64,000 nucleotides of DNA from Oligoflexia bacterium. Lineage in GTDB: Bacteria; Bdellovibrionota; Bdellovibrionia; JABDDW01. The DNA is taken from the NCBI GenBank assembly GCA_043732305.1, contig JAYTHU010000031.1, forward strand, positions 4,739-68,738. The letters run 5' to 3'. The position numbers and the translations under genes are program-made. The notes under the pieces were generated by a model. It made no database searches. It was not told where the DNA came from and saw only the letters and a list, made by a program, of their open reading frames with translations. Below are positions 7,983 to 37,214 of this stretch, in pieces; the first letter of the stretch is position 1, and each line of letters begins with the position of its first letter.

Positions 7983-8028
7983 GGTGCCAATATCCTATAA
8001 AAATGACGGGAATTAAGAAAGAAAAATA

Positions 8029-13608: not shown

Positions 13609-13609
13609 T

Positions 13610-14386: not shown

Positions 14387-14394
14387 GATTCTCC

Positions 14395-19570: not shown

Positions 19571-19749
19571 AAATCTCCACTTTGAAAATAGGTCCATCCG
19601 TATTCTCTCAAGTTTATGTATTACAAGGGTTGGGCCATGGTTTTGGTCCTAGGGAATGACAGGTTGACTATAGGATTGATTGTCAGGAGTGCAGTTCGAA
19701 TAGGCCTTGAGTCGTCAGACAACTGTCTAATTTTTAGCCAAGTCGGTTT

Positions 19750-21591
19750 TTACCGAGGTGCCAGTAATGACTCGATCCTATTCACGGTGAATTTCTCCAG
19801 CCCCGGTTTGTCTTGCCATTTCTTGTCTGCAAGAATCTCGATGATTATCTCTCGTGCTTGGTTCTTAGTGAGATTTGGTCCACTCCCAAACGACACTTGT
19901 GTCAGCATTTTAAACAGAATAATTTGAGCTAAAGAAAACTTCAAATTCTTTGAAGAATCATGGGGTGCAAAAAATACGGTTGGAGCAGCGTGAATTTGAA
20001 AAGAATAATTCTCTTTTTGAACCACCAACGTTAGCTCATCCAAATAAGATATCATCTCCCTCAACACCGCGACGGGAATCCTCTTATTTTCAAGGTAACT
20101 ATCTAATAGTTCAAGTCTGGCAGCTGGACTGACCGGTAATTTCAAAACCTCCATCATTCTATCGAAATGAATTTGTTCTTCCGAACCCATTTTAAATCGA
20201 GGACGAGGTCTCTTATTGGAAACCTGTTGTAGGATTTTCTCAACGGCGAACATTTCTAACTTAGGAACATTCGACCATTTTTTAGTGTTAAAAAGTTTGC
20301 GGGCTATTTCCTGGGCCTCTTCCTTTGACAACGCTCCGTGCGCTCCGGGGATCAAACGCTTCAGCATCTTAAACAAAATCACATCACTATACCCAAATTT
20401 AGAATTGGAACGGGAATGGGGACTTTTGATTGAATAGAATATTGATTCTGGAAACGCAATAGACTGCATAGCTTCATTATCCTTGGCAATTGAGTCTTTA
20501 TTCAAAACAGGAATCATTTTCATAAACACCATGACCGGCACGCTCGTAGATTCGACATAACTTTCCAAAACCCCGAGAACACTTTCTAGACTTGCGGGGG
20601 ATTCCAAAAGAAAAAGCATGTGATCATAAATTTTTTGGTCCTCGGGGTCCAATTGAGACGAGCGTGGTCCATCTATGCCATTCTCACTGTCCATCAAAAA
20701 ATCGAGATCGATACCTTGTCGAGACGCCGAGATAACCGATTTCATAATTTCAATATCGCTGACTCCGTCGGCCAGTTCCTTGACCTCACTGACTTTCCCG
20801 ATAATTGGCGAAAGAGCGTCGATCATCATCACGACCTGCATTTGGAGAGCTTTTAGTTTCTGTATCTCTTTAGTGAAAGTCGCGACAAAAACATTTTCGC
20901 CCATTGAATTTTGAGTTGCTACCTCCAGAACGCTTTTTCGTTCGGCAATCGTGCTCTGTGTGACCCGAAGCAAAATGTATTCTTCATTCAATTGGCGAGA
21001 TATTTCCGGAAATTCAATTTTACACAGGGCAATACTTTGCTTGCAGCCTTTAATTTTATTAGCAATCTCGGTAACGGAAACTTTATAATTCTTGCTCAGC
21101 CCAAGAAAATGGCTCACCGAAGATGGCTTACCGACTGTTAGTTTTTTCTGAAGCTCCGTAGTCAAAGCGGAAACATTCTGCATCCCAAAAAATACGGTAC
21201 GAACCTTCTCCAAGCTTTCTTTATTTCGGTTCAAGGACAGGCCCGTCTGCTGCTTTGAAACTTCCAAAACCAAATCAAAAATCGGCTGATCCCAATCTTG
21301 CATAAATTCATTAGCCAGATACTGAGGATGAGAAAATCGAGAAGATTCGAGTTTGGACCTAAGACCTTCCACCAAAAAATGTGCAGCTTTCTGGATTTCA
21401 GAGTCATCCAGACTTTTTATCGTATGTTCGAACTCTGGCAAAGACGAACCGGACTTCAGAGTTTCAAGGATGGATGCGCACCTGTCCCCGAGAGACATTT
21501 CTTTTGGCGGCTGGGCACGGTGCCCTTCAATCTCAGAAGCCTCAACAAGGCCGGGGATTAAAAAGATAAAAACTAACATAAGAAACTTCAT
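19750..21591 (-). CDS. secreted protein, paralogue family member 1 (subgroup A)
   Basis: Signal peptide. Shares RC.S.LE.L, SRFSHPQYLA, C-x6-C (GCKQSIALCKIEF), NEEYILL and DLDFL blocks with 21598-22989 and 22986-24395. Confidence 0.6.
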   Translation of the reverse strand: MKFLMLVFIFLIPGLVEASEIEGHRAQPPKEMSLGDRCASILETLKSGSSLPEFEHTIKSLDDSEIQKAAHFLVEGLRSKLESSRFSHPQYLANEFMQDWDQPIFDLVLEVSKQQTGLSLNRNKESLEKVRTVFFGMQNVSALTTELQKKLTVGKPSSVSHFLGLSKNYKVSVTEIANKIKGCKQSIALCKIEFPEISRQLNEEYILLRVTQSTIAERKSVLEVATQNSMGENVFVATFTKEIQKLKALQMQVVMMIDALSPIIGKVSEVKELADGVSDIEIMKSVISASRQGIDLDFLMDSENGIDGPRSSQLDPEDQKIYDHMLFLLESPASLESVLGVLESYVESTSVPVMVFMKMIPVLNKDSIAKDNEAMQSIAFPESIFYSIKSPHSRSNSKFGYSDVILFKMLKRLIPGAHGALSKEEAQEIARKLFNTKKWSNVPKLEMFAVEKILQQVSNKRPRPRFKMGSEEQIHFDRMMEVLKLPVSPAARLELLDSYLENKRIPVAVLREMISYLDELTLVVQKENYSFQIHAAPTVFFAPHDSSKNLKFSLAQIILFKMLTQVSFGSGPNLTKNQAREIIIEILADKKWQDKPGLEKFTVNRIESLLAPR

Positions 21592-21597
21592 TTTTCC

Positions 21598-22989
21598 TTA
21601 CTCCGAAACCAAAGTGTGCAAATGACTGATCACGTATTTTTCCAGACCACCGTAATAAGACCACGTTGAATCGGTCAAAATTTCCCCGGCAATGACATGA
21701 GCATCCTCTTTAGATATTTTTCTCAAGTCGCTTTGAGTGACACGGCTTAATATTTTTGTAATGACAATGATTTTAAGCGGAAACTTCGAATTGACATTCA
21801 TGAAATTATGGGGAAGGAACTCGGTCGCCGGGTAAACTATTTTTTGGATAAACTGATCATCTCTCCAACTCGAATCATCAAATTTATAGATAATAGGTAC
21901 AATCTCTCTCAGCACATCAATAGAGATAGGAGTGCTATTTGCATAATCCTCGAGAATATTCAGAGCAATCCTGGAAGACGTCGGTGAGCTAAGAAGGTAA
22001 ATCATATGATCGAGGATTTGTCTATCACCGAGGCTGATTTTTACCAGACTTAAAGAAGGATTTAATTTAGAATCTCCTTCCACGAGAAAATCCAGATCCA
22101 ACCCTTGCGAAGAGGCACTGATCACTGATTTTACAATTTCACTCTCGTTCACGGCATCCGCCCGCTCTTTAATTTCCCGAACTTTTCCTAAGATCTGAGA
22201 AAGTCCACCAGTCATAGCGGAAACTTGCAACTGTTGAATCCCCAGCTTTTCTAGCTCTCGTTTGAAAGACTCAACTAAGATTTTCTCACTCGTCTGTTCC
22301 ATAGCCTCCCTTAAAATTCGTTCTCGCTCGACCATTAAACTGGAGGTAGCTTGCAGCAAAATATATTCTTCATTCAAATCTTGAACAATGGCGGAAAATT
22401 TAATTTTGCAAAGACCAATGGTTTTCCGGCACCCGCTAATTTTCTTAGCGAGTACCAAAACCTTAAGTTTATAGTCCGGTGATAACCAACGGCTGAGCTT
22501 GAAAACCGACGGCTTTCCCTCAGCTAAAATATTCTGTAACTTTCCCACAAGCAATCCGATGCTTTGGGTTCCATAAAGGGCGGCGTTGGCTCTCGCCATA
22601 CTTTCTTTATACCGAGAAACATCAAGACCGATTTTCTGCTTTGAAATCGCCAGTACAAGATCAAAAACTGACTGATTCCAGTTCGCGAGGACTTCACTGG
22701 CTAAATGCTGCGGATGAGAGAAACGTGAAGTGGAGATTTTTTCTTTTACTGCCATCACCAATTTTGAAGCTTCTTCCCGAAGAGTGGCTTCTCCTAAATC
22801 ACCCAATTTAGTTTCAAGTTCCAAAACTGTGGATCTATTTTCAAGCGCCTCTAGGACGCTGACGCAGCGAGTATGCAGATCAGAAGACTCCTGTGTTTTT
22901 TCTTCAGATAAAGATCCATGGAGTTCGGATGCCCTAGCGAAATTAGTCATACAAAAAATAAAAACTATAATAAATAATAAATATTTCAT
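21598..22989 (-). CDS. secreted protein, paralogue family member 2 (subgroup A)
   Basis: Signal peptide. SRFSHPQHLASE, GCRKTIGLCKIKF, NEEYILLQ and SVISASSQGLDLDFL are near-identical blocks to member 1. Confidence 0.6.
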   Translation of the reverse strand: MKYLLFIIVFIFCMTNFARASELHGSLSEEKTQESSDLHTRCVSVLEALENRSTVLELETKLGDLGEATLREEASKLVMAVKEKISTSRFSHPQHLASEVLANWNQSVFDLVLAISKQKIGLDVSRYKESMARANAALYGTQSIGLLVGKLQNILAEGKPSVFKLSRWLSPDYKLKVLVLAKKISGCRKTIGLCKIKFSAIVQDLNEEYILLQATSSLMVERERILREAMEQTSEKILVESFKRELEKLGIQQLQVSAMTGGLSQILGKVREIKERADAVNESEIVKSVISASSQGLDLDFLVEGDSKLNPSLSLVKISLGDRQILDHMIYLLSSPTSSRIALNILEDYANSTPISIDVLREIVPIIYKFDDSSWRDDQFIQKIVYPATEFLPHNFMNVNSKFPLKIIVITKILSRVTQSDLRKISKEDAHVIAGEILTDSTWSYYGGLEKYVISHLHTLVSE

Positions 22990-24395
22990 TTTATAACTCC
23001 ACGCACAGAGGCAATTCCCGAGTTCTGAAGAGCAACTTTTCGGAGGCCACAGCCAGACTTCAAGGCAAAAAACTCCCCGTTCGAATACAACTGGGTCTCA
23101 AGCTTTTTATAAAGCTCCAGATGCCCGTCTGAAGTGAGACTCATTTTTTTCGCCATCTGGCTGAGAGTTTTTGCGGAGAGCGTTTCACCTTGAAACAAAA
23201 TCAATTTTTTTGATGCCATGTAAGGAATGACAAATTTCAAATAATACTTATAGTTTTGGGAACCGTCGAAAACTCTTCTCACCTTATAAATTTCTTGTTG
23301 TGGGGCGGATTTTGCATAGATAAATATTGATCCCGTGAAAGGTTTAACCGCTTTGAGAAGAAACAAAAGGCTTTCGAGAGAAATGAATTTCATTACTTCA
23401 ATCTCTGCGAGAATCATGTCTCCTATTTCATCGTTAGAAAGTTCCGAATGAATAGCGCGCGCCACCTTCAATTTGAACTGCTCCTGTTGATCCAAATCCG
23501 TGTCTGTACGACTCGGAGACAAAGTCACGTCGTTTTCACCGATTAAAAATCCTAAATCAAAACCTTGAGATGCCGCTTCCATCACCGTTTTATGAGTAGA
23601 TCCTGTTTGAAAAATATCAGCCTGAGACATGACGTGGGAGATCTTGTCGATGGTCTCAGCCAGCTTTTCAGTTTTAATTTGCAATAAAGTTTTCTGCATG
23701 CCAAGCCTTTCGAGCTCAGTCTCAAGAATCCTTAAAAGCCCTGGGTGAGAAGTTATTTTCTTGGCCGCGACAAGAATCTTCATCTCATCAGAAAATGTCA
23801 TTTTTACGGCGTTGAGAAAAATCAGATCGGAATTGATTTGCTTTGATATGGAAGGCAAATCCAGTTGGCATTGGGCGAGAGATTTTTTACACAGGGCCGC
23901 TTTGCGGGCTAGGTCTTTGATTTTATTTGAATGGGTGCTTTTCAACATCAAAAATCTCCGCCCGCGGGAAATGGCCTTCTGAAGTTCATCAAGAACTATG
24001 GTCACATTCCTTGATCCGTAAAGGAGATTTTTCGCATTGGTCAGAGCCGGAGCTTCAAGCAGTTGCCCCGCCCCAAGATAACGTTTAGAAATAGAATTCA
24101 GAAGTTCATTCAAGTCCGAGTGATTTTCGGCCATACCCTCGCGCAAGACGTGCACTGGCTGGGAAAGGGAATGATCCGTCAGACTTTTTTCTAAGTGAGA
24201 AATGAGATCTCGACTCTCCGCTCCAATCTTCTCGTCGCTCAACGGATGAAATTCTTTTTCCAAATCGTGATTTCTATTTTGGCTCAGATTTTCAAGTAAG
24301 AGTCCACAGCGAAGAGAAAGATCACCGGCATTTAAAAACGGAGAGAATAGAAAGACTAGTTCTAGAAAAAGTAGACCTATAATTTTCGATCTCAT
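22986..24395 (-). CDS. secreted protein, paralogue family member 3 (subgroup A, diverged)
   Basis: Signal peptide. LRCGLLLENL, C-x6-C (LCKKSLAQCQLDL), EAASQGFDLGFL. 4-nt overlaps with both neighbours. Confidence 0.55.
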   Translation of the reverse strand: MRSKIIGLLFLELVFLFSPFLNAGDLSLRCGLLLENLSQNRNHDLEKEFHPLSDEKIGAESRDLISHLEKSLTDHSLSQPVHVLREGMAENHSDLNELLNSISKRYLGAGQLLEAPALTNAKNLLYGSRNVTIVLDELQKAISRGRRFLMLKSTHSNKIKDLARKAALCKKSLAQCQLDLPSISKQINSDLIFLNAVKMTFSDEMKILVAAKKITSHPGLLRILETELERLGMQKTLLQIKTEKLAETIDKISHVMSQADIFQTGSTHKTVMEAASQGFDLGFLIGENDVTLSPSRTDTDLDQQEQFKLKVARAIHSELSNDEIGDMILAEIEVMKFISLESLLFLLKAVKPFTGSIFIYAKSAPQQEIYKVRRVFDGSQNYKYYLKFVIPYMASKKLILFQGETLSAKTLSQMAKKMSLTSDGHLELYKKLETQLYSNGEFFALKSGCGLRKVALQNSGIASVRGVIK

Positions 24396-26248
24396 TCCGT
24401 CCTCAAAATGGCTTCGCTTACAAGCTGATCCACAACTTCACTTATCTTTGCGTCTCGCTCTGGATCAAGATGAACCCCTCTAGAAAGAGCTGTTCTTTCT
24501 ATCACTTTCTTAAGATTTTCCCTCGCTGTAGTTTCAAATTCAGAAATGTTATCTTGCCCAAGGATTTGAACATGGCGCAAACCCACTACCGCAAAAAATA
24601 TACTCGCATTGAATGCCTGTTTTTCGTGACTCATTCCTATCGCATTATAAATACTGTCAGGAATTTGCGCGTATGTGTCCACCCAATTCACAGATTGGTT
24701 CTTGCGAGAAAAAAGAAGCGTCGACAGAGAAAGGTACTGCGCAATGGTGATGCGACGATTTTCCTTGAACAAATGAGTCCAAATTCTCGAGGCAATACGG
24801 CTTGCAGAAATCTGACTCAGATAGGTTGTTTCCATTTCTTTTTTAATTCCCACGAGATAATCAGAAACACCTAAATCAACCAAAGGCTCAAGCAGTCCTC
24901 GAAGTGACTGATTCAATGCGAGGCCCAATTTGTCATTTTTATGATGGGACAAAACATAACCGATGAACTTTGGAATTTTCGATGCGAAAACAGGATCTTC
25001 AAAAAGAAGGTTGAATCCCTGAAAGAGAACTCTTTGATCCGTGTTTTCGAGAAGATTAGTGGCCATTGTGCCGAATAAATGACTAGCCAAAAGTTCATCA
25101 TCTTCACTGTTGGCAGCAAACTTTTCCACTCTAAGCATGGTTTCAGCAACCAAACGTGTATCTAACCACTTCACAGAAAGAAGAGCAGTGAGTTGTAAAA
25201 AATCTGCATTTTCCTGGAGCTTTTCCACTGCATGACCATAAGCTGCAGATGTGAGGGGCAATGATTTTAAAAGATTCCATGACTCTTCTTTTATACCCCA
25301 AATACTTACACTTTTTTGTTCGCGCCTATGCCACTCCATTTTCCATTCGATAGGCTCCACGTCATCTTCTCGCGGCACTAGAAGAGGCTGGAGATCCACG
25401 GGCACTTTCAGTGATTGGGCTTTGATAATCAAACGGTGGCTAAACTCAACCCTGGATTCCCGAGCGTTACTGCCCACTTGATCGGCGGTAATAATTATTT
25501 TTTCTAAAGTCTCACTCATAATCAAAAAATAGGACTCAAGCTTAGCTATCTCTAGCCTTTTGTTATTTAGCGCCGTTATCACGGAACTTTGAGGGAAAGT
25601 AGATGGCAACCAGTCAGATAGATTTTCCAAAAGGAGATCTAAAATTTTAACTTGATCTTGCAGTAACGACTCCACATTTTTGACCGTCGCGAACTCCTGA
25701 TTGAGATTTTCAATAATTGTTTTAAGCTCTTTTGAACAATGGTTGATCGATACCCGACACTCTCTCACTCGAGCGACTTGTTTGAGAAGTTCCTGCTTTT
25801 TTTTCTCGATGTTGAATCGAGCGCGACCGTATTGATCGATCCTTACATCTAAACTATTCAAAAGTTTCTGTTCGCTGTCCACACCAAAGAGAAGCGTTTC
25901 TAATTCTTCTAACTTTTTAGGCTTAGAGTTTGTGTTTTGAGAAACTTGTCTTTGGCTCACTGCTCGTACCATTTCTAAAAGAGGTTCAAAATGATCTTGA
26001 AGCCGAGTTTGAATTTGAAAATACGGACTAGAGAATTTTTCTTTTTCTAATGCAAAAACTAAATCCTTCACTAATTTTTCATAGACTTGTTTCTGGTCCA
26101 CAGGTTGGGATGCCTTGAATTCCAAAACTTTTTCAAGCTCAAGGATACATGGTTGTGCATTGATAAAGGTGGGAGAAGAAGTAACTGCTGAAAAAGCGTT
26201 GCCACCTAGAAAAAAAACGGGAAACACTAAAGATAAAAACACTTTCAT
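24392..26248 (-). CDS. secreted protein, paralogue family member 4 (subgroup B)
   Basis: Signal peptide. FSSPYFQIQ, LEELETLLFG, C-x6-C (ECRVSINHCSKEL), NQEF and WLP blocks shared with 26248-28161 and 30205-32106. Confidence 0.6.
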   Translation of the reverse strand: MKVFLSLVFPVFFLGGNAFSAVTSSPTFINAQPCILELEKVLEFKASQPVDQKQVYEKLVKDLVFALEKEKFSSPYFQIQTRLQDHFEPLLEMVRAVSQRQVSQNTNSKPKKLEELETLLFGVDSEQKLLNSLDVRIDQYGRARFNIEKKKQELLKQVARVRECRVSINHCSKELKTIIENLNQEFATVKNVESLLQDQVKILDLLLENLSDWLPSTFPQSSVITALNNKRLEIAKLESYFLIMSETLEKIIITADQVGSNARESRVEFSHRLIIKAQSLKVPVDLQPLLVPREDDVEPIEWKMEWHRREQKSVSIWGIKEESWNLLKSLPLTSAAYGHAVEKLQENADFLQLTALLSVKWLDTRLVAETMLRVEKFAANSEDDELLASHLFGTMATNLLENTDQRVLFQGFNLLFEDPVFASKIPKFIGYVLSHHKNDKLGLALNQSLRGLLEPLVDLGVSDYLVGIKKEMETTYLSQISASRIASRIWTHLFKENRRITIAQYLSLSTLLFSRKNQSVNWVDTYAQIPDSIYNAIGMSHEKQAFNASIFFAVVGLRHVQILGQDNISEFETTARENLKKVIERTALSRGVHLDPERDAKISEVVDQLVSEAILRTE

Positions 26249-28161
26249 TAATTTAACTGCCCCACCGTTCTATTCAGGAGATTGTCTATGTATTTTTCGA
26301 CTCCCAGCTGATAGGATTGACTGGATCTCTTGTGACCGGGCATATGCTGAAGCACGATTCTCAACAGACGAGCATGCGCACGCTTTCTAAAATTAGGAAT
26401 ATTATCCATGCTCAGAATTTGAATCTTACTCAGTGCTTTTACGGCAAAAAATATTATTGGATTGAGCCTGACGTAACCATCCCCTTGGAATGGCCCATAA
26501 AATTCTTTGGGTAGAACTTTAAGTTCATCGTTGCTCCAACCTCCCGGACAGAGATCCCAGACAGAGGTTGCTCCGTGATTTACCGATACTTCTAAAAGTT
26601 TGAAATAATCTTCTGCAACCAAACGAGTCTTAGGATCGTTCAAATAATCCCACATCAGCTTGACTTCAAGATCTCGCGAGTCAGTGCCTTCTCCCGCAAG
26701 CTCGCCCATCCTCTGCATAAAATTAAAATCAACCATCACCGTGGGTCCCAGCATGAGGGCTTGTGTGATAATCAGGCGGGCTCGATCCGCGGTGCCCACT
26801 GGGTGCAGTTCACCCAGGAAAAGTGGAATCTGCCCGAGGACATCTCCCTGGAAAAGCCCACTGAACCGGCTGTGAATCCAATCATTCTCCATACGGTGAT
26901 TGAGACGTGACATAAGAAAGTCCACGGCAAGTTTTCCTCGAGCCTTAAATATCACGTCTTTGGATTTGAGAAAGCCTTCGATTGCACGAACAATCTGCAG
27001 AAGGTCAGGTGCTCCGCCAATGTTTAAGGAAAATAATTCTATTTTCCTCATGAGACTTTCCGTCTGACCTAATTCATCAGCCAATATTTTAAATTGCCGG
27101 CTGTTTAAGGGAAGCTTCAATAAAACCTGCCACGAAGGGTATTTATCATCCCAAACAGCACTCTCCATGTTGTCTTCGCTAGCGGCTATGTTCGCTGGCT
27201 TGTCGGGTCCCGGTAAAAACTGGTCTAAATTTATATTTATATCCCAATAAGTTGATTTCAGTTCATCCCGCTCTTTCAAGATAAAATTGAGATCAATGGC
27301 CGGTGACTCCGAACCAGCGCGGATGATAGCCCTTTGAATCCCTTCTATTTGGGTTGAGCCTGCGTGGCTTGCGGACTGATCTGCTCCGATCATGATTTTT
27401 TCAATGGCGTCAGCCATCAATGTGAAATAACTCACCGATTGACCGAGCTCTTGAATCTTATTTGAAATAGCTTTCTTGACAGAATCACTTCCCGATTTCA
27501 CAGGCAACCAGTCATTGGTATTCGAGAGGACAAGTTCGAGAATTTTCGTTTCATCTTCCAAAACACTGAGCACGGTTTTTACAATTTTATATTCGGCGTT
27601 CATTTCTGAAAGCAGAACGGTCACATCAGTAGTGCATTTCTTAATGGCAGCACGGCATGCTTTCAATTTGTTCCCGGCATCTACAACCGCTCTTACCCTA
27701 TCGGCTATTTTCTCGCCCGTTGTTTTGAATGAAATCAGCCCCCCCTTCCGCTTAGCACTGAGGGTATTATTTAATTGCTCGAGTAATTTCAACTCCGTGT
27801 TTGTTCCAAAAAGAAGGGTTTCCAATTCTTCCAGAGCCTTGGGCTTTGTCGTCGAACTATTAGAAATTTGTCGGAGACTCACTTCCAGCGCAAGTTCAAT
27901 GATGGGTTTTAGATATTCGCTCAAACTATTTTGAATGACAAAATAACTACTGGAAAAAAAATCACTTTTGAGAGCCGCTTCGAGCTGCTTTTGTAAAATA
28001 GAATATCTAATCTCGATCGACTCACCATTGTTTTTGACGATGCTTTCAAGAGACGCTTTGCATGGGGGCCGGCTGAGCTCGGCACTTTTAGCGCAGGAAA
28101 TCCAAAGGCACCCTGCCAGAAATGCCATTGCCAAAATAAAAGGCTTTTTGTCCCCGCTCAA
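26248..28161 (-). CDS. lipoprotein, paralogue family member 5 (subgroup B)
   Basis: LAGC lipobox. FFSSSYFVIQ, LEELETLLFG, ACRAAIKKCTTDV, NAEY, NDWLP. TAATG stop/start overlap with member 4. Confidence 0.6.
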   Translation of the reverse strand: MSGDKKPFILAMAFLAGCLWISCAKSAELSRPPCKASLESIVKNNGESIEIRYSILQKQLEAALKSDFFSSSYFVIQNSLSEYLKPIIELALEVSLRQISNSSTTKPKALEELETLLFGTNTELKLLEQLNNTLSAKRKGGLISFKTTGEKIADRVRAVVDAGNKLKACRAAIKKCTTDVTVLLSEMNAEYKIVKTVLSVLEDETKILELVLSNTNDWLPVKSGSDSVKKAISNKIQELGQSVSYFTLMADAIEKIMIGADQSASHAGSTQIEGIQRAIIRAGSESPAIDLNFILKERDELKSTYWDININLDQFLPGPDKPANIAASEDNMESAVWDDKYPSWQVLLKLPLNSRQFKILADELGQTESLMRKIELFSLNIGGAPDLLQIVRAIEGFLKSKDVIFKARGKLAVDFLMSRLNHRMENDWIHSRFSGLFQGDVLGQIPLFLGELHPVGTADRARLIITQALMLGPTVMVDFNFMQRMGELAGEGTDSRDLEVKLMWDYLNDPKTRLVAEDYFKLLEVSVNHGATSVWDLCPGGWSNDELKVLPKEFYGPFQGDGYVRLNPIIFFAVKALSKIQILSMDNIPNFRKRAHARLLRIVLQHMPGHKRSSQSYQLGVEKYIDNLLNRTVGQLN

Positions 28162-28178
28162 TTCTTCCCACCCTGATC

Positions 28179-30092
28179 TTATAATTTAGTTTTTGCTATA
28201 TTTTCGAGCTCTGAAGTGCAGTCCGCTCCATCCATGGTTCCGCCCACACTACGACTCACTAAATTTTGAGCTTCAATGGCCGCAGAATTGAGACGGCCCA
28301 TCGCGATAAAACTCTTACTTGCTTCTATTTCCATGCGGGCTTTTTCAGAGATAATAAAGTCGGCCGTTTCCTTGATTGTCTCGGCGCTGAAGTATGCCGT
28401 GGTATTGATCTCAATGATCATGTCATTGGCGCGCGCGACTTCAACTCGCAATTGTTTCAAACCTGCCTCTTGAGTGGCTCGCACCGCTTTGTTTGTACCT
28501 ACGGCCATTTCTAAAGTGGAGTTGGTGTTTTTGATCATTTCCAAGGTGGTAAAAATAGGCATGCCATTTCTCACGTTAGCGATGTCTTCTCTTACAAAAT
28601 AAATAGTGTCTAGCTGTTTGGCCATAGCTTCACCTATGAGTTCCATAGCTGAGGCCTGACTCAAACCCGCATTGAGACGGTTTCTGAGCTTCTGGCCCAC
28701 ATATGAAATCACGGCTTTCTCATCTTCAAAACGTCCATTGAGATGAAATTCTTCAACGACTCTGGCGATTTCATCGTCGACGAGTTTCCCGAGAGCTACT
28801 TTCATTTTCAAATCTTGGAGGTATCCAGACATCTCATGAAGAGTCGTGATGATTTGCACGCCACTTTCCTTCAATGTTTTAGAGTTGCTCAGCAATACAT
28901 TGTCGACACTCGTGATGCCTTGGCGGTGACTCAACAGTGCCAAACGATCTTTCTTAGGTTTAACGGCGGAAGTCAATTTTCGTTTCACGTAGCCTGGATT
29001 AGGAGCTGCCGAAAGTTTTCCATGCCATCGTTCACGTATCGTGGATTTCCCCACTTCATGCCCCATGCTCTGAAGAAGGTAAGACAAGTCCTTGATGTTT
29101 TGAAGAGATTTTAATTGGGTGTCGTTGATAGCAATATATTGTTTCGAGTTGCGATCTAAAATCTTATTGTTATTCAAGAAGCGTGTGGCCTGCTCGGAAG
29201 AAGCACTCAACTCACTTTCTAACGTTTGCATATTTTCTTGGCGGATTTGCGTTCGCCCCTCGGGAGATAATGTTTTTTCAATAAGTTCTAGAGCCAGCTC
29301 CTTAGCTTTTTTAGTGAGAGCGTCTGCGGAAACTCTGCTCATACGAACTTCAAGAGGCTTGGTTTCGCCCTCACCATTTTTATAATCACCAAGCAAGATT
29401 GTTCGAGTTTGATTTCGAGCGTAGAAAATTTCATCCACGCCATCACGTCTGCGAGAAGCGGCGTCTATCTCCTCGATTTCAAAAAGAATGCCGTCTCCGT
29501 TGGACAAAATATCTTTCGCATACTTCAAGAGACTAGCAGCAGGAATTTGCTGAGTGAGTCCTTGCCGAAGCACATCAAAATACATTTTTAAATTTACTAG
29601 AGAATCCGCATTTAATTTTCCCGGAGCAGTGGTCGTCACTAAAGTCACGAGATCTCTTAAACTGGGATCAGATGTCAATTGAGAGATATCAAAGGAACCA
29701 AGAGTCGCCAGAATCTCAAGTCTGATTTGGTTGACGTCAATGACTTTTGAATCTTTGGTTTCTTGAGCCACAATTGTTTGCAGGGCGGTGCTTACTGCAG
29801 GAAGTTTGTCACCAATCACGGCGATGGAAGATATCGCTTCGGGACTAAGTTTGTATTGAGTTTTTCCACTCTTAAATCTTTCTTGCAGCCGTCGAGTGAT
29901 TTCCGCAATCATGCTAGTTTGCACTACCTCAGTTTGCATTGCCTCCAATTGCCCGTGTTTATAGCTTGGCAGCTGAGTTGTAGTCACCTGACCGCCGGCA
30001 AAAGCAAGACTGCTCACCAATAAAAGGCTCAATGATTTTCCAAGAAGTTTGAGAAAAAAATTATTCTTTTGCATACTAGAAATCCCCTCCAT
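28179..30092 (-). CDS. secreted alpha-helical protein, first gene of the operon, not a family member
   Basis: 637-aa ORF with signal peptide (LLLVSSLAFAGGQ). No shared blocks with the paralogue family. No recognised domain. Confidence 0.5.
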   Translation of the reverse strand: MEGISSMQKNNFFLKLLGKSLSLLLVSSLAFAGGQVTTTQLPSYKHGQLEAMQTEVVQTSMIAEITRRLQERFKSGKTQYKLSPEAISSIAVIGDKLPAVSTALQTIVAQETKDSKVIDVNQIRLEILATLGSFDISQLTSDPSLRDLVTLVTTTAPGKLNADSLVNLKMYFDVLRQGLTQQIPAASLLKYAKDILSNGDGILFEIEEIDAASRRRDGVDEIFYARNQTRTILLGDYKNGEGETKPLEVRMSRVSADALTKKAKELALELIEKTLSPEGRTQIRQENMQTLESELSASSEQATRFLNNNKILDRNSKQYIAINDTQLKSLQNIKDLSYLLQSMGHEVGKSTIRERWHGKLSAAPNPGYVKRKLTSAVKPKKDRLALLSHRQGITSVDNVLLSNSKTLKESGVQIITTLHEMSGYLQDLKMKVALGKLVDDEIARVVEEFHLNGRFEDEKAVISYVGQKLRNRLNAGLSQASAMELIGEAMAKQLDTIYFVREDIANVRNGMPIFTTLEMIKNTNSTLEMAVGTNKAVRATQEAGLKQLRVEVARANDMIIEINTTAYFSAETIKETADFIISEKARMEIEASKSFIAMGRLNSAAIEAQNLVSRSVGGTMDGADCTSELENIAKTKL

Positions 30093-30204
30093 AAAAGTAC
30101 TTCATCCATCTTAACGCAATGCGTAAATAAATTTAAATTGTTTCTGCTAACCGCCACACTGCAATTTCTAAGCCCACGGAACGCAACTTGCAGTTGTTAA
30201 TTTT

Positions 30205-32106
30205 ATGACCTTATTTTTTTTAAACACAGGCGGGTTCAATGATCATCGCCGTGGAAAAAGAACTCGACCCTACCCGAAAAGCGGGAATTTTTTTCAGGAG
30301 AAAAAAAGCGGAGCCATTCTATTCGTTTTACTAACTTCGCTATGTTCGTTTCTCGTAACTGGTGCAAGTCAGGCTCAAGAAGTCACCTCATTAACCATCA
30401 GTGATGCCTGTCAGGCTATCTTGAAAACCCTAAAGGCAACGTCCAACCCGCATGAAAAAGACTCCGTCAATTACACTCCTATCAATGATCAGCAAATCGT
30501 GGATGGAGGAAAATCAATATCCAGCGTGCTTGCTGCCGCCCTGAGGGAAGATTTTCTCTCAAGTCCCAAATACATCATGCACGAACATCTCACAGAATTT
30601 TTGGAACCTGCCATGGATTTGGCTAGAGAAGTGAGCGCAAGGCAATTGGTCGGCCAAACCAGAGAAAAACCAAAAAGCATTCTAGAGATAGAAACTCATC
30701 TTTATGGAAATAAAAGTTTAACGGCGAAGATTGAGGAAGCTGAACTGGCTCTCGACAAGCTTCAGAAAAAAAGTATTTTTCGCAAAAAAGCGACAGAGGA
30801 GGTATTTAAAATTGCGAATGAAATTTTATCCTGTCGCACTGCCATTCAATCTTGCAAGCTTGATATCAAAGGGACTCTCATTCAACTGAACCACGAGTAC
30901 CGCCTGTCCCATGCTGTTGAACTTATTTTGACCGATCACTTAAAAATCCTCGAGAATCTTCAAGGACGTCACACCGAAACATCAATTCAGACAGTGATAG
31001 AAATTAAAAAAGCGGAGTTGAATAGACTGCTGGCGATTTTCAAAGCGGTTTCTACGCAGATTGAATCAGTCATTGAAGTCGGACATACCGTGGTGAAAGA
31101 TGCGGACCAGCTTTCATCCGATAGAATTTCGCAACTCGTGATCAATGCCGCCAAGCAAAGTCCTTCCTTAGATTTGACGTATCTAAATCCGGAGACTGAA
31201 GAAGAAGTACAAGAAAAACTTGATCCCGGAGTGATCTTCAAAGATCCCGCGACGGCGGCTCTGCAAAAACTGATTGACCTCACAACTTCCGATATAGGCA
31301 TACGCGAAACCCTATTGAATAAAATTTATCCTCAGATCTACACACCCTCTGGATACTCTTGGATGGTGAGGTACAAAACCCGGAAAGCCCTTGATCGAAT
31401 AAAAAATCAAATTAACATTGGCGGTAAAATCAACATCTACCTTCTTCCATCAGTGATGGAGATTCTTGTGGAATCTTTGGAAACTCTTGATGAGCCAGCA
31501 CTTTTTGCGATCTTGTTAGACCCGGACATTGACCTGCCTGGGTCTCTGCCACAGCTTTTTTCAGCAATCACTCAGCACCCTAAGGCAAAGAAAATACAAA
31601 ACATTTTGCCCAGTTTTTTAGCCGGCAAAACCAGTTGGACAAGGAGCCGTGATTTTAGTGATCAGGTGACGGAGATTTCGAATTACTCCATCGGAGATCG
31701 GTCAAAACTTGATTCACTGGAGATTCTCATACGTAAATCGACGACCATATCACAAGACGAGTTTCTGCTTTTGGCAGCGAAAACTCCTTCTAACGTTCCC
31801 TGGGGCCTCCCAACCGATGTTTACCTTAAAGGAAAACTCACCGCCTATGGTTTCGCGAAGCGAGATCTGATGGCAATACACATCAAGATAGAATTTAATA
31901 TCATTTTTGATGCTCTCGAAAAAGTCTCAATCAGAGATATTGAGTCAAAACAAAATTGGGAAAGGAAGGTCATTGGAATACTCACCACCCGGTTAAGGGC
32001 AGCCTATCCAGATGACAATTTTCCTAAAGAGGTGACGTTGGTTACGGCTTTGGACAATTTGCTCTTGAGAGCCATGCAATATTCCAGCAAAAGGTGTTAC
32101 GAGTGA
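30205..32106 (+). CDS. secreted protein, paralogue family member 6 (subgroup B-like), divergently transcribed
   Basis: DACQAILKTL, FLSSPKYIMHE, LEIETHLYG, SCRTAIQSCKLDI, NHEY, SLDLTYL. The real start is probably downstream of the annotated Met, at the signal peptide ...AILFVLLTSLCSFLVTGASQAQ. Confidence 0.55.
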   Translation: MTLFFLNTGGFNDHRRGKRTRPYPKSGNFFQEKKSGAILFVLLTSLCSFLVTGASQAQEVTSLTISDACQAILKTLKATSNPHEKDSVNYTPINDQQIVDGGKSISSVLAAALREDFLSSPKYIMHEHLTEFLEPAMDLAREVSARQLVGQTREKPKSILEIETHLYGNKSLTAKIEEAELALDKLQKKSIFRKKATEEVFKIANEILSCRTAIQSCKLDIKGTLIQLNHEYRLSHAVELILTDHLKILENLQGRHTETSIQTVIEIKKAELNRLLAIFKAVSTQIESVIEVGHTVVKDADQLSSDRISQLVINAAKQSPSLDLTYLNPETEEEVQEKLDPGVIFKDPATAALQKLIDLTTSDIGIRETLLNKIYPQIYTPSGYSWMVRYKTRKALDRIKNQINIGGKINIYLLPSVMEILVESLETLDEPALFAILLDPDIDLPGSLPQLFSAITQHPKAKKIQNILPSFLAGKTSWTRSRDFSDQVTEISNYSIGDRSKLDSLEILIRKSTTISQDEFLLLAAKTPSNVPWGLPTDVYLKGKLTAYGFAKRDLMAIHIKIEFNIIFDALEKVSIRDIESKQNWERKVIGILTTRLRAAYPDDNFPKEVTLVTALDNLLLRAMQYSSKRCYE

Positions 32107-35045
32107 AACCGAAATTTTCTGCTTCCACATTTCTAATTTTCGATTTTTTAATCTTCGCAACTCTTTTAAGCTTCGGCTTATGTTCAAGCTTAGGCTTTGG
32201 CGCCGAGCTTTTACGTTTCCCTTTCCAAGACGGAAGAAAAATTCTGGTGACTCAGGGTGATTCGGGCGTTCACGTTTCTTATGTCAGAAAAATAGATTCT
32301 TCGAATACAATCAGCAGCGCAGGCAAAGAAGTGGAAATAGAATTTCTCACTTTGCCAGAGCTAACGGGTTTTTCAGTCTTTAATAATTCCGACGTTTCAA
32401 ATCACATTCCGAAAGAAATCAAAGCTTATAAAGTTGTTCAATCCAAAAAGTCGAACTTTGAGTTTAAAAACTGGTTGATCCTATCGGATAAAACCCATGG
32501 CTATTTTATACGGCAACATAGTTTTTCTGGAAATAGCAAAATCCCTCTGGTGGTTTTTAAATTCAAAATGCCAAGCGACGTCAAAATGATTTCATCAAGT
32601 TATGGGATGGGACCGGAAGGATCGCGATTTCTATATTTTATTTCTGTCGATGGAAAAACAGCCAAAACTATGGTTTTTAGTCCAGAAGAGGGAGACCAAC
32701 CACTCAAATTAATTCCTCAATTTGTAGATCTTGGAAATATTCAGGAGCCGGTTTTCCAAATTGTTGGCGATGAAATCGTTTGGAAAGAACGATATCTGAA
32801 AAAATATAATTTCGACCTTCCTGAAATCAAAGACATTAAAACAGGGAATTCAAAAAACAATCCCATGGGTGATATTGAGAATTCTCAGGCGAATTTGCAA
32901 AACACCGCCCGCATGGCTCATGAAGCTGCCACGGAATTATCCAAACCTGCGAACCAAAGAATGAAATCCGCAGAACGGACCCAGAATTTCAATCATTCTC
33001 TTGCCACACCTGATGCTGATGTTGAATACAAAGGCCTTCATTACAAAATTGAAGAGTCACTTGAAGGAGTCGAAATTGTCAGGCTCAAAGATCTTAAAAG
33101 CCTCACTGTAAGCAAAGGAAGCTATAACTCAACTCATATTTTAGATGGCGGAATACTGAAATTTTCGGATATCTCTCGAGAAATATCTCTAGATCACTTT
33201 GATGCCGAATGTGCCTTCATGCCCACTGGAAACAATCCCCAAGAAGTAAAGTTCATGGAAGGAACTTATGAAAACTTTAGAAAGACCGGATCAATAAATC
33301 TCGTTCTTCCTGATTCGCGAAAAGAACTGGTCAGACAGGCGGTAAAACGCATGCTCGGTGAAAAGAAAAACAGCCTGCTTCTGACTGAAGGTTTTGGAGA
33401 TCGAAAGTTCATTGTTCAAAATATAGTTCAGGCCTTGCCACCCACCTGGCGCGTGCTTACGCTTTCACCGGGACCACTCTCTAAAGACATCAACTACTCG
33501 GGAAAAATTCAGGAAAACGTTTCCCATATTTTGGAAGCGGCAAAGACGACGCCTCTGGTTTTGGTGGCCGAAGACTTTCATATCTACAAAGGTTTGGGAT
33601 CTACTGGTGGCAATCAAACTGATGTGCTTGAACTGATCCGTGATGCGGTCTTGAGTGGCCAACTGCGGTTGATTGCACTCTCCGGAGAGGAATTTAACGA
33701 GCGTGTTCATGATCCTGCTTGGGACCGAGCCCTTTTTAAAATTCCCCTTACTGATTTGAGTCAGGTAGAAGTTTTTGAATTCTTAAAAAATCTTTGGGCG
33801 GTAGATGGAAAAGGACTTCCACTTCCGAGCGCCAAAACTCTAAATAAAATAATCGATGTTGCGGGGAAATTCAATGTGACTGAAGAAGACCCCGCCCGCT
33901 CCGCCGATTTCATGGCTGCATACATTTCAGAATTGAGCGAGACAACGTCTCCATCCATCGACGTGAACGATGAAGTTTCTCTTTTGAAATCAGCTAAAGA
34001 TTTCTATCGACTAGATCCTTCACTGATTGATCCAAAAATTTTATTCTCTAAAGTTCAGAACTTTATTCCTAAGGTTCGCGATTACGGTCTCATGGGGCAT
34101 GATCATGTGATTGCAGCGGCAAAAAAAATGATTGCAAACTCCCTTTCTGGCGCATCACTTGATCCCGGGCCTGGATTTATTATGTACGTGGATGGTCCAC
34201 CCGGCGTTGGAAAAACCGAAATGGCTAAGAGTTTTGCTTCGGCCATGGATTGGAACATCAAAAGAATTGTCATGCACCAGGCAATGACCTCAGACACTCT
34301 GCTTGAAAATCTTTATCGCGCACTGAAAAAAAATCCACACTCTCTGATTTTTCTCGACGAGATAGAAAAAGCATCTCCCGACACTCTCAAGGGACTTCTT
34401 CAAACCATGGACAATGAGTACTTCAACGTGGATATGGAGATTGGCGACAAACAAAAACGCACGGTGCGCGCGTCTACTAAACATGCGAAGTTTATGCTCG
34501 CTGGAAATGTACTGGGCGAAGCAATCTCCCATTGGTGGCATGATCATCCGGAATATATTAACTCTCTCACACCACCTCATATGCAATTCATAAAGGACAT
34601 GGGCGGCGAAGAACGTTTGCGGCAACTATTGATTCAAGAAGGTCTTCCGTCCCCGCTCATTGATAGGGCCTACGTGACTTATGCTTTTCCGCCGACACGA
34701 GAACAGATAAAAGGTTTCCTCACTTTTAAGATCAACCTGATGATAAAAATATTTGAAAAAAACAATGATCGAAAATTAGTCTTCACTGGTCTTGAAAAAT
34801 ACATTGAAGATGTGACTGATTTTGCTATTCGGGAAAAGCTTGGACCAAGATCCATTTTGCGCGCCACCACGGGCTCTAATGGAGATTTCGCAAGCATTCT
34901 GGCAAACCTTGCAAGCACGTACGCTGCGGCACCGGGGAGTCATGACGGGCCGGTGAAGCTTCGATTCGATGAAAAAAGAACGGATCCCACCCACGACTGC
35001 CAAAATATTTTGGCAGAAATGGAAAATGAGATCCGAGAAAACTAA
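32094..35045 (+). CDS. Clp/Hsp100-like double AAA+ protein with degenerate D1, intact D2 and novel membrane-anchored N-terminal region
   Basis: D1-like segment aligns with ClpB but has GFGDRK for Walker A GVGKT and AEDFH for Walker B DELH. D2 has GPPGVGKTEMAK, LIFLDEIEKA and a sensor-1-like MLAGN (AAA_2 type). The N-terminal 40 aa are hydrophobic and a ~400-aa unique domain follows. 13-nt overlap with the preceding paralogue. Confidence 0.65.
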   Translation: MLRVKPKFSASTFLIFDFLIFATLLSFGLCSSLGFGAELLRFPFQDGRKILVTQGDSGVHVSYVRKIDSSNTISSAGKEVEIEFLTLPELTGFSVFNNSDVSNHIPKEIKAYKVVQSKKSNFEFKNWLILSDKTHGYFIRQHSFSGNSKIPLVVFKFKMPSDVKMISSSYGMGPEGSRFLYFISVDGKTAKTMVFSPEEGDQPLKLIPQFVDLGNIQEPVFQIVGDEIVWKERYLKKYNFDLPEIKDIKTGNSKNNPMGDIENSQANLQNTARMAHEAATELSKPANQRMKSAERTQNFNHSLATPDADVEYKGLHYKIEESLEGVEIVRLKDLKSLTVSKGSYNSTHILDGGILKFSDISREISLDHFDAECAFMPTGNNPQEVKFMEGTYENFRKTGSINLVLPDSRKELVRQAVKRMLGEKKNSLLLTEGFGDRKFIVQNIVQALPPTWRVLTLSPGPLSKDINYSGKIQENVSHILEAAKTTPLVLVAEDFHIYKGLGSTGGNQTDVLELIRDAVLSGQLRLIALSGEEFNERVHDPAWDRALFKIPLTDLSQVEVFEFLKNLWAVDGKGLPLPSAKTLNKIIDVAGKFNVTEEDPARSADFMAAYISELSETTSPSIDVNDEVSLLKSAKDFYRLDPSLIDPKILFSKVQNFIPKVRDYGLMGHDHVIAAAKKMIANSLSGASLDPGPGFIMYVDGPPGVGKTEMAKSFASAMDWNIKRIVMHQAMTSDTLLENLYRALKKNPHSLIFLDEIEKASPDTLKGLLQTMDNEYFNVDMEIGDKQKRTVRASTKHAKFMLAGNVLGEAISHWWHDHPEYINSLTPPHMQFIKDMGGEERLRQLLIQEGLPSPLIDRAYVTYAFPPTREQIKGFLTFKINLMIKIFEKNNDRKLVFTGLEKYIEDVTDFAIREKLGPRSILRATTGSNGDFASILANLASTYAAAPGSHDGPVKLRFDEKRTDPTHDCQNILAEMENEIREN

Positions 35046-37192: not shown

Positions 37193-37214
37193 CTTGATCG
37201 TGGTTTTAAATTTA

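Follow-up and report, generated by a model that had tools for sequence, protein, structure and literature searches.

Gene layout and composition of the locus

Within the window analysed here (the whole stretch of 64 000 nt of DNA) we examined eight adjacent genes, named g1 to g8 (Table 1). Their positions agree exactly with those given in an earlier sequence-only reading, although that reading had spoken of seven consecutive minus-strand genes from 30092 to 19750 and we counted six. The junctions were found as described, with 4-nt overlaps, a TAATG junction, a 6-bp gap and a divergent gap of 112 bp, and so was the overlap of the 3′ end of g7 with g8, where the TGA stop of g7 (32104–32106) and a GTG at 32103 together read GTGA. 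The database version of g8 starts at this GTG and comprises 980 aa; g7 and g8 are translationally coupled. Promoter and terminator scans yielded sites no commoner than in shuffled sequence, and an Rfam search gave no match.

An AT-rich, accessory composition had been proposed for the locus and was not borne out (GC 0.424 versus 0.433, GC3 0.420 versus 0.415). GC, GC3 and synonymous codon use lay inside the range of the window's other genes. Long flanking repeats that would mark a mobile element were not found, and on account of this result and the native composition a horizontal-transfer island was rejected. The locus is surrounded by housekeeping and beta-oxidation genes. The flanking gene labelled 'icmF' (10348–13740) combines MeaB with a B12 mutase and is thus an isobutyryl-CoA mutase fusion. 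As it encodes a CoA mutase, a link to type VI secretion (T6SS) through this gene was rejected; T6SS genes were absent from the window and T6SS domains from the flanking genes.

Table 1. Genes, ATPase segments and cysteine motifs of the locus (window positions)
Feature	Residues	Position (nt)	Strand	Description
g1		19750..21591	-	613 aa; paralogue with signal peptide
g2		21598..22989	-	463 aa; paralogue with signal peptide
g3		22986..24395	-	469 aa; paralogue with signal peptide
g4		24392..26248	-	618 aa; paralogue with signal peptide
g5		26248..28161	-	637 aa; TTG start; paralogue with LAGC lipobox
g6		28179..30092	-	637 aa; predicted exported, divergent TelA-like protein
g6-g7 intergenic region		30093..30204	.	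112 bp, divergent; presumed control region
g7		30205..32106	+	633 aa; sixth paralogue
g8		32094..35045	+	983 aa (980 aa from GTG at 32103); signal-bearing two-ring Clp-like AAA+
g8 N-terminal hydrophobic helix	10-32	32121..32189	+	signal peptide or signal anchor; Lys/Arg on N-side
g8 N-terminal non-AAA+ region	38-372	32205..33209	+	without Pfam match
g8 D1 degenerate Walker A, TEGFGDRKF		33384..33410	+	
g8 D2 catalytic core	701-760	34194..34373	+	Walker A GPPGVGKT (701-708) to Walker B FLDEIEKA (753-760)
g8 C-terminal tail motif, CQNIL	C969	34998..35012	+	start of terminal helix 965-982
g1 motif, RCASIL	C38	21466-21480	-	
g2 motif, RCVSVL	C42	22852-22866	-	
g3 motif, RCGLLL	C30	24294-24308	-	
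g4 motif, PCILEL	C34	26135-26149	-	
g5 motif, PCKASL	C34	28048-28062	-	after LAGC lipobox
g6 motif, DCTSEL	C625	28206-28220	-	near C-terminal end
g7 motif, ACQAIL	C69	30409-30423	+	

The ATPase g8 and its predicted export

Like ClpA, ClpB and ClpC, g8 contains two tandem AAA+ modules homologous to Clp D1 and D2. Its best sequence matches are ClpA (aligned over residues 408–775, E 5e-15) and ClpB, and its best structural matches are CLPB/Skd3, ClpA and ClpB NBD2. The D1 ring had been described as dead, and we came to the same result: Walker A is degenerate and a Walker B-like AEDF (VAEDF) stands at residues 491–496, while GPPGVGKT and DEIEKA of D2 are intact. D1 is also degenerate in the closest clade (GD-K, no DE), and that of g8 has probably lost nucleotide binding. 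In an alignment of 48 sequences, D2 residues G701, G704, K707, D755, E756 and N805 (sensor-1) were invariant, and T708, R858 and R919 were conserved in at least 90%; the D2 positions that make up Walker A and B, sensor-1, the Arg residues and sensor-2 in ClpA/ClpB are thus conserved.

The designation as a Clp-type unfoldase holds for the two-ring Clp-like architecture, but g8 is not a standard member. It has no match to Clp_N (PF02861), which is replaced by novel beta domains, no coiled-coil insertion equivalent to the ClpB M-domain in its model, and no IG[FLM] tripeptide anywhere that could represent the IGF/IGL ClpP-docking loop. The D2 GYVG pore loop is missing as well, a 15-residue gap lying opposite ClpA 'ligappgyvGfdqggl' between Walker A and B. 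After D2 strand beta2 the family has EMNx[YF], where g8 reads VMHQAM and the aromatic residue is lost. Since g8 lacks both this aromatic and the GYVG loop, classical threading appears doubtful. The N-terminal region consists of a beta-rich domain (38–230), a disordered linker (242–306) and a small conserved beta domain (308–372) bearing the family motif GIL..(x)..R.I.L..F..E. Against the Clp NCBIfam models g8 scores far under the equivalog cut-offs (66 bits versus 993), and PADLOC and PHROG returned only generic AAA+ matches (DolB, 22.5 bits; phrog_4871, 'ATP-dependent protease').

By an exhaustive HMMER search we obtained 34 cluster representatives of the g8 family at E<1e-30 and 295 at E<1e-10, which points to a family of Clp-like proteins with two rings that is large and as yet uncharacterised. 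Most members have a Sec-type signal peptide, the novel beta-rich N-domain and, close to the C-terminus, a conserved Cys, and most are without the ClpB M-domain and the D2 GYVG pore loop. Other searches were less productive: word-indexed searches with g8 and the ATPase-specific profile A3 retrieved nothing but proteins of the window itself or generic ClpB, the 80 loci listed in a contig scan by D2 Walker motifs were ordinary ClpB-type genes, and a metagenome scan with the ATPase N-region profile gave no confirmed relative among the at least 600 matches listed.

Signal peptides or a lipobox had been claimed for the secreted proteins of the locus, and indeed all eight products begin with a hydrophobic signal-like segment (residues 33–57 in g7), g5 having the lipobox LAGC. 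All eight are therefore predicted to be exported, with export calls based on hydropathy and charge heuristics and AxA sites judged by eye. Of the g8 homologues, 134 are 700 aa or longer; at least 93 of these passed a stringent heuristic for signals, many others look by eye as if they began with a signal peptide, and a further TM-like segment was found in only 2.

In the sequence-only reading g8 was membrane-anchored. The N-terminal helix is present and an anchor is one reading of it, but the family-wide signals are of the classical cleavable Sec type. In the anchored version g8 stays fixed to the inner membrane, its AAA+ rings face the cytoplasm, and it would be a dedicated unfoldase or secretion chaperone that prepares or feeds the helical proteins for export. 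This would place the motor in the cytoplasm, where alone ATP is available, and would agree with the tight g7–g8 coupling, with the conserved synteny and with a hydrophobic stretch (residues 7–37, with an Asp inside) longer than is usual in signal peptides that are cleaved. However, the protein has one N-terminal helix with Lys/Arg on the N-side, so that by the positive-inside rule everything after it should lie outside the cytoplasm, and homologues have short h-regions followed by AxA-type cleavage sites (e.g. VLA|AN, ASA|SS, VSA|QS). Furthermore, the beta-rich N-domain of about 350 aa and the single conserved Cys suit an extracytoplasmic protein, and the ordinary Sec signals on the helical proteins make a special unfoldase unnecessary. 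Because of the cleavable Sec signals across the family and the positive charge on the N-side, we predict that the ATPase is exported rather than cytoplasm-facing, and we consider the anchored version unlikely.

Helical paralogues, a TelA-like protein and their recurrence in foreign loci

The proposed family of six paralogues was confirmed: g1–g5 and g7 have a common N-terminal domain of about 300 aa (blastp E 1e-6 to 1e-106) with three invariant Cys, their identity being 18–39% and their C-terminal parts variable. The proteins g4 and g5 are alike over their full length, the C-terminal part of g3 is unlike that of the other paralogues, and g1 has a C183/C190 pair besides C38 and a duplicated C-terminal module of about 130 aa. 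In the AF2 model the N-domain is all-helical with a long hairpin, and its likeness to ESCRT-III is no stronger than that to many other helical hairpins. The claim that no described domain can be assigned stands for these six proteins, which belong to no Pfam, NCBIfam, PADLOC or PHROG family and have no detectable enzymatic domain, but fails for g6, a relative of TelA. Profile searches of the PDB (window-family profile A2 and profiles A5 and A6) gave no match, and a word-indexed search with A2 found nothing beyond the window's own proteins or generic ClpB.

The 637-aa protein g6 had been called distinct. It is unrelated to g1–g5 and g7, but it is not unassignable, since its orthologues identify it as a divergent relative of TelA (PF05816). 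Genes upstream of foreign ATPases match g6 by blastp (E 1e-9 to 1e-21), and a foreign-family profile built without g6 matches it at E 2e-50 over residues 19–603. Two orthologues exceed the Pfam TelA cut-off of 30 bits (L088_7977, 49.7 bits; L090_7869, 30.3 bits), and the orthologue matches cover profile positions 40–323 of 332. We assign g6 to TelA by transitivity because the orthologues pass the cut-off and g6 matches the orthologue profile; g6 itself has no direct match to Pfam TelA even at E<=1, and its sole Pfam match is sub-threshold (ArAE_1_C, 20.9 bits versus a cut-off of 22.4). In contrast to TelA/KlaA/YaaN, g6 has a signal peptide, an N-terminal extension of about 300 aa and a linkage to an AAA+ gene instead of ter/kla genes, and it may be a fixed adaptor or scaffold of the ATPase. 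A TelA structure was not found by sequence search, models from PADLOC and PHROG matched none of g1–g7, and a metagenome scan with the TelA-like profile gave no confirmed relative among the at least 600 matches listed.

For the analysis of synteny we used eight loci on unrelated metagenomic contigs, in which the ATPases of module loci are only 25–31% identical to g8. In six of the seven foreign loci with upstream sequence (L083, L084, L085, L087, L088 and L090), the gene immediately upstream of the ATPase is a g6 orthologue, and tandem arrays of helical paralogues with predicted export adjoin the ATPase in all seven informative loci (L084, L085, L087, L088, L090, L091 and L094), with 2–6 paralogues per locus and variable C-terminal parts. 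A profile of the window family only matches two array members of L088 (E 2e-6 and 2e-5), both with the three-Cys pattern. Comparison of the three-Cys window family with the single-Cys foreign arrays by hhalign (probability 19–53%, E 1e-3 to 1e-4) weakly supports a possible homology. In more distant family members that retain an intact D1, the gene stands alone, with neither arrays nor a TelA-like gene beside it, and for this reason we regard the module as a feature of a clade and not of the whole family. A J-domain protein with a signal is also encoded in one foreign cluster, and this protein, too, would depend on a partner from the cytosol, Hsp70.

A common element of these proteins is a Cys-x-x-hydrophobic-hydrophobic motif. 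By eye, 26 of 26 array proteins have a Cys soon after the signal peptide, with hydrophobic residues at +3 and +4 from it; the automated motif frequency table is approximate, as it picked signal-peptide Cys in g2, g5, g7 and L085_14293. Most foreign array proteins have no second Cys in the mature part. In 101 ATPase tails we observed a Cys with L/I/A at +3 and L/F/Y at +4, and the tail Cys (C969 in g8) is conserved in at least 90% of the family. A CaaX-type prenylation signal was ruled out, the C-terminal Cys standing 5–12 residues from the end and not 4, and so was a lipobox reading of the Cys in the array proteins, where the preceding residues are unfit save in the separate LAGC of g5.

It had been suggested before that the Clp-like gene works as a unit with the exported helical proteins, and the recurrence of these neighbours at such low ATPase identity speaks for it. 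The term 'undescribed' also proved apt, no described system matching: in the literature on exported or periplasmic AAA+ proteins, on TelA and AAA+ pairing and on links to Bdellovibrio or Leptospira, we found no description of such a module. Judged from gene content and predicted export, an ATPase, a TelA-like protein and an exported helical array make up an undescribed bacterial gene module that recurs, and the locus represents one copy of it.

Possible site and mode of action

Several known systems resemble parts of the module. ClpV (TssH) is a specialised Clp-like ATPase encoded beside dedicated helical clients, VipA/VipB, which it remodels. This may be a functional analogue of g8 and its adjoining helical proteins; however, ClpV is cytoplasmic, and its model TIGR03345 scores 32.8 bits on g8 against a cut-off of 884.95. 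Torsins in the ER lumen and Skd3/CLPB in the mitochondrial intermembrane space are Clp D2 relatives active outside the cytosol. Torsin has a signal sequence, no aromatic pore loops and functionally important C-terminal Cys residues, but these proteins are eukaryotic, single-ring and paired with other partners (LAP1/LULL1), and family membership was not seen at the sequence level. In the Plasmodium PTEX, a signal-bearing ClpB-like AAA+ protein is active outside the producer's cytosol with helical partners at a membrane (PMC6550532, PMC7355975). Its likeness to the g8 module is one of organisation and not of family relationship: neither EXP2 nor PTEX150 had a detectable homologue, and HSP101, unlike g8, is active in both rings and possesses pore-loop tyrosines as well as an M-domain.

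We favour, with a probability of roughly 45%, an ATPase/adaptor/client module that is exported and acts outside the producer's cytoplasm. All its proteins would be sent across the inner membrane. With a nucleotide-free D1 and a D2 that has every catalytic residue, g8 would be a two-ring motor, and g1–g5 and g7 its variable clients or co-assembling subunits. Once exported by Sec, a g8 hexamer, powered by ATP hydrolysis in D2, would build up, take apart or transport the helical proteins, acting at a membrane that lies outside the cytoplasm of the producer. This site would most likely be at or inside a target cell (prey or host), or in a compartment connected to one, because to our knowledge the bacterial periplasm has no ATP source. 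The Cys motif on the mature N-terminus of the clients and on the ATPase C-tail could be a docking element, possibly through an intermolecular disulfide. What the sequences show are the gene structure, the family relationships, the conserved synteny and motifs and the predicted folds, whereas export, the physical interaction, the direction of action and the biological target are inferred; the module may serve secretion or effector delivery.

A stress or maintenance system for the producer's own envelope seems to us still less probable than the anchored version. Here the TelA-like protein and the helical paralogues would, much like TelA and PspA, form coats on membranes or mend them, and the AAA+ protein would regulate or recycle these proteins. 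The match of g6 orthologues to Pfam TelA, the native composition and the housekeeping and beta-oxidation neighbours agree with such a role, and TelA/YaaN are treated together with the Psp envelope response in PMC12791056. However, rapid diversification with several paralogues per locus is more typical of proteins facing another organism, the likeness to ESCRT-III is as unspecific as noted above, and the problem of the ATP source equals that of the exported module. Classical TelA proteins, moreover, have no signal peptide as far as we know. Least probable is that the paralogues are duplicated variable surface or secreted antigens or toxins and the AAA+ and TelA-like genes mere neighbours: low identity, variable C-terminal parts, one lipoprotein and the missing enzymatic domain would suit this, but the adjacency recurs in at least seven independent loci with such divergent ATPases, the ATPase tail and the client N-termini have the Cys motif in common, and g7 and g8 are coupled.

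A more specific form of the exported module, for which we see a rather slim chance, is a bacterial counterpart of PTEX, in which a Clp-like hexamer would push or pull proteins across a target membrane with the target's ATP. Six Cys-bearing tails would dock onto a ring of motif-bearing helical proteins and the TelA-like protein, and this assembly would sit on the membrane of the target cell (prey or host).

All bacterial AAA+ unfoldases and disaggregases known to us are cytoplasmic, and we know of no ATP-driven protein-remodelling machine outside the bacterial cytoplasm. A large, conserved family of Clp-like ATPases with Sec signals, whose D2 catalytic residues are under purifying selection and one clade of which is tied to a TelA-like partner and to a diversifying array of exported helical proteins, challenges the view of an ATP-free periplasm: either the motors act in the cytoplasm or membrane of another cell, which would be a new principle of effector action or translocation, or ATP-dependent remodelling occurs in the bacterial envelope. 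The still poorly understood TelA-like proteins would gain a defined molecular partner, and the correspondence between the Cys motif of the motor tail and that of the client N-termini offers a simple handle for tests. Should the PTEX-like version be true, the module would represent a new class of protein translocation and the first AAA+ machine shown outside the bacterial cytoplasm, and if the host organism is predatory, for which one nearby gene of restricted lineage gives a hint, the findings could bear on how predators move proteins into their prey.

Layout and surroundings of the locus

We found all eight ORFs of the locus (g1-g8) exactly where the sequence-only reading had placed them, together with the two 4-nt overlaps, the TAATG junction, the 6-bp gap and the 112-bp divergent gap it described. 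Its seven consecutive minus-strand genes were, by our count, six (g1-g6); the seventh may stem from a putative lipoprotein gene that follows g1 on this strand after 152 bp. This gene encodes a 285-aa Ser/Thr/Gly/Asn-rich protein with an LLFTAC lipobox, for which we observed neither a family match nor a tblastn match among the translated foreign proteins (a set without L092-L094). The stop codon TGA of g7 (32104-32106) overlaps a GTG at 32103 as GTGA, and the 980-aa version of g8 in the protein collection starts at this GTG.

An AT-rich, accessory composition had also been proposed, which our values contradict: GC was 0.424 in the locus compared to 0.433 elsewhere and GC3 0.420 compared to 0.415, while synonymous codon use deviated from that of the other genes by no more than about 1 SD. 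As composition is native and no long repeats were found flanking the locus, it is not a compositional island. The flanks consist of ordinary chromosomal genes, namely beta-oxidation enzymes, an IcmF-type isobutyryl-CoA mutase fusion, ScpAB, TrpRS, Mla and an HflX-type GTPase. The flanking 'icmF' was ruled out as a T6SS gene; it encodes a fusion of B12-binding domain, MeaB GTPase and methylmalonyl/isobutyryl-CoA mutase, densely surrounded by genes for acyl-CoA dehydrogenase, enoyl-CoA hydratase, 3-hydroxyacyl-CoA dehydrogenase, a FadB-like protein and thiolase. Its TTG start is probably over-extended. A nearby TIGR04552/TIGR04562 protein (343 bits) belongs to a family whose name was mentioned, among the papers searched, only in those on Myxococcus (M. 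xanthus) and Bdellovibrio, which weakly hints at a host of Bdellovibrionota-like lineage. The transposase ORF of the window has a homologue (E 2e-12) on L085, an unrelated contig which also bears the ATPase module.

Coordinates of features in the window and on foreign metagenomic contigs carrying g8 homologues (L083-L094)
Sequence	Positions	Strand	Feature
Window	5651-6235	minus	IS200-like Y1 transposase ORF
Window	7524-9180, 13610-15240, 35054-38558		beta-oxidation surroundings
Window	10348-13740	minus	IcmF-type fusion
Window	13610-14386		ORF overlapping the fusion by 131 nt (13610-13740)
Window	17555-18658	minus	TIGR04552/TIGR04562 protein
Window	18740-19597	minus	putative lipoprotein
Window	19750-21591	minus	g1
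Window	21598-22989	minus	g2
Window	22986-24395	minus	g3
Window	24392-26248	minus	g4
Window	26248-28161	minus	g5
Window	28179-30092	minus	g6
Window	30205-32106	plus	g7
Window	32094-35045	plus	g8
Window	19750-32106		six array proteins
L088	13116-23096		six array proteins
L085	16716-17252		transposase homologue
L084	6336-7736		J-domain (DnaJ) protein, C-terminal Cys
L090	13096-15285, 15334-15786, 898-1410		C-terminal-Cys ORFs
L094	1-420, 11203-11802		C-terminal-Cys ORFs
L084	1-1053		large multi-Cys family
L085	8550-11045		large multi-Cys family
L090	4662-7649		large multi-Cys family
L094	7896-11090		large multi-Cys family
L090	1598-2347		Phage_30_3-like protein
L093	12959-13594		Phage_30_3-like protein
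L092	12017-12457		small DnaJ protein
L092	12534-14187		large ankyrin-repeat protein

The Clp-like ATPase and its family

The g8 product aligned to ClpA across both AAA+ modules, D1 and D2 (residues 408-775, E 5e-15). Its AF2 model, calculated from a 48-sequence alignment (mean pLDDT 83.9), begins with a helix (10-32), followed by a beta-rich domain (38-230). A disordered linker (242-306) leads to a small beta domain modelled with very high confidence (308-357), after which come D1, D2 and a terminal helix (965-982); a coiled-coil M-domain is absent. D1 is dead, as had been claimed, with TEGFGDRKF as Walker A and AEDF at the Walker B position. D2 is complete: G701, G704, K707, D755, E756 and N805 are invariant, and conservation reaches at least 90% at T708, R858 and R919, as it does at C969 near the C-terminus. 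According to the ClpA alignment, the GYVG pore loop of ClpA/B is missing from D2, and its place is taken by EMNx[YF] in the family and by VMHQAM in g8. Neither a Clp_N domain nor an IGF/IGL tripeptide was found in g8, and its N-domains matched no Pfam family. g8 descends from the Clp/Hsp100 proteins and would work likewise, but it lacks several features that define ClpA, ClpB and ClpV (active D1, GYVG loop, Clp_N, M-domain and ClpP loop). In organisation it comes closest to eukaryotic extracytosolic Clp relatives, namely HSP101 of the Plasmodium export machine PTEX, torsins and Skd3.

An exhaustive HMMER search returned 34 cluster representatives with an E-value below 1e-30 and 295 with one below 1e-10; at E<1e-3 the number rose to 2244, generic AAA+ proteins included. 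The relatives listed share the architecture of g8 at 800-1100 aa, and most start with classical Sec signal peptides (e.g. ...VLA|ANTG, ...ASA|SSG, ...VSA|QSS). We compared 134 homologues with a length of 700 aa or more: a strict signal heuristic was passed by at least 93, a Cys lies within the last 16 residues in 100, and a further TM-like segment was seen in only 2. The view of the sequence-only reading that g8 is an anchored unfoldase facing the cytoplasm appears unlikely. The degenerate D1 is common to g8 and its closest clade, and more distant members have an intact D1 (GxGKT/DE) with an aromatic pore loop.

Predicted exported partners in the window and at foreign loci

All-against-all blastp confirmed a common N-terminal domain of roughly 300 aa in g1-g5 and g7 (E 1e-6 to 1e-106), while g6 proved unrelated to these six. 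A hydrophobic signal-like segment starts all eight products, and g5 has the expected lipobox (LAGC). The family alignment contains three invariant Cys (C38, C183 and C190 in g1). From a six-sequence alignment, AF2 predicted that the N-domain consists of helices throughout and contains a long hairpin (193-255 and 259-302); overall pLDDT was 68, with 80-90 reached from residue 130 on. Profiles of the paralogue families gave no match when searched against PDB sequences. A C-terminal module of about 130 aa is common to g1 and g2 (residues 476-611 and 326-462, 28% identity, E 4e-13) and is internally duplicated in g1.

We retrieved contigs encoding nine homologues and sampled co-occurrence in eight foreign loci, among which g6 orthologues and exported arrays recur beside the Clp-like gene. 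In L083, L084, L085, L087, L088 and L090, the gene immediately upstream of the ATPase encodes a g6 orthologue (blastp E 1e-9 to 1e-21), and a profile built solely from these foreign proteins matched g6 residues 19-603 at E 2e-50. In L094 the upstream 139-aa fragment shows no recognisable relationship to g6, and in L091 the upstream DNA is too short to judge. Two orthologues exceeded the Pfam TelA (PF05816) cut-off of 30 (49.7 and 30.3 bits), which g6 itself does not. At seven foreign loci, tandem Pfam-less, signal-bearing proteins of 490-840 aa adjoin the ATPase (3 in L084, 5 in L085, at least 1 in L087, 6 in L088, 1 in L090, 2 in L091 and 2 in L094). The window-only family profile matched two L088 members (E 2e-6 and 2e-5), which have the same three-Cys pattern; the remaining foreign proteins form a single-Cys family, whose relation to the three-Cys family is weakly supported (hhalign probability 19-53%, matches co-linear). 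The distant intact-D1 homologues in L092 and L093 are solitary genes; therefore, the linkage is a feature of the degenerate-D1 clade and the P0025 lineage. That the ATPase is merely adjacent to variable surface proteins seems improbable.

Both the window and L088 have exactly six array proteins, the number of subunits, and hence C-terminal tails, in an AAA+ hexamer. This may be coincidence; other loci have 1-5, several on contigs that end early. Another recurrent neighbour of the ATPase is a family of large (830-1064 aa), multi-Cys, Pfam-less proteins, which match one another across loci at E 1e-19 to 4e-33 and several of which have a signal-like N-terminus; tblastn found no member of this family in the window. 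Small exported proteins weakly matching Pfam Phage_30_3 (49% mutual identity) are encoded in the vicinity of two very different ATPase family members.

Cysteine motifs and a predicted extracytoplasmic module

Reading the sequences, we observed in 26 of 26 array proteins a Cys whose +3 and +4 positions are hydrophobic, located within about 25 residues after the hydrophobic core of the signal peptide (QCAEAF, RCAEVL and NCELVL in foreign proteins; RCASIL, RCVSVL and ACQAIL in the window). The automatic tabulation picked the signal-peptide Cys in four array proteins, so that its frequencies are approximate. The motif Cys is the sole Cys of the mature protein in most array members from foreign loci; such a single conserved Cys, in proteins predicted to be exported, may point to an intermolecular disulfide. 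The ATPase tails (101 sequences) show a Cys followed by mostly E/Q, any residue, L/I/A and L/F/Y, 5-12 residues from the end, and g6 ends in DCTSEL. Several other cluster or nearby proteins, including an ABC1-kinase-like protein, a J-domain protein and small ORFs, likewise have a Cys in the last 3-8 residues.

Our preferred reading, to which we assign a probability of about 0.45, is that the ATPase acts on the helical array proteins outside the producer's cytoplasm, remodelling, assembling or moving them, with the matching Cys motifs as docking elements. As ATP is required, the site of action would probably be at or in a target cell. The signal-bearing J-domain protein within the L084 cluster fits action in a foreign cytosol. 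J-domain and ankyrin-repeat domains, the latter seen with a small DnaJ protein near the solitary L092 homologue, are typical of proteins acting in another cell's cytosol. An envelope-maintenance system we regard as rather doubtful.

In the literature library searched, we found no description of an exported bacterial AAA+ protein or of a TelA-AAA+ module. The best-supported statement is organisational: a conserved module unites an exported Clp-like ATPase with dead D1 and live D2, a TelA-like partner and diversifying exported helical proteins. At the system level this module would be new, its export and function being predictions.
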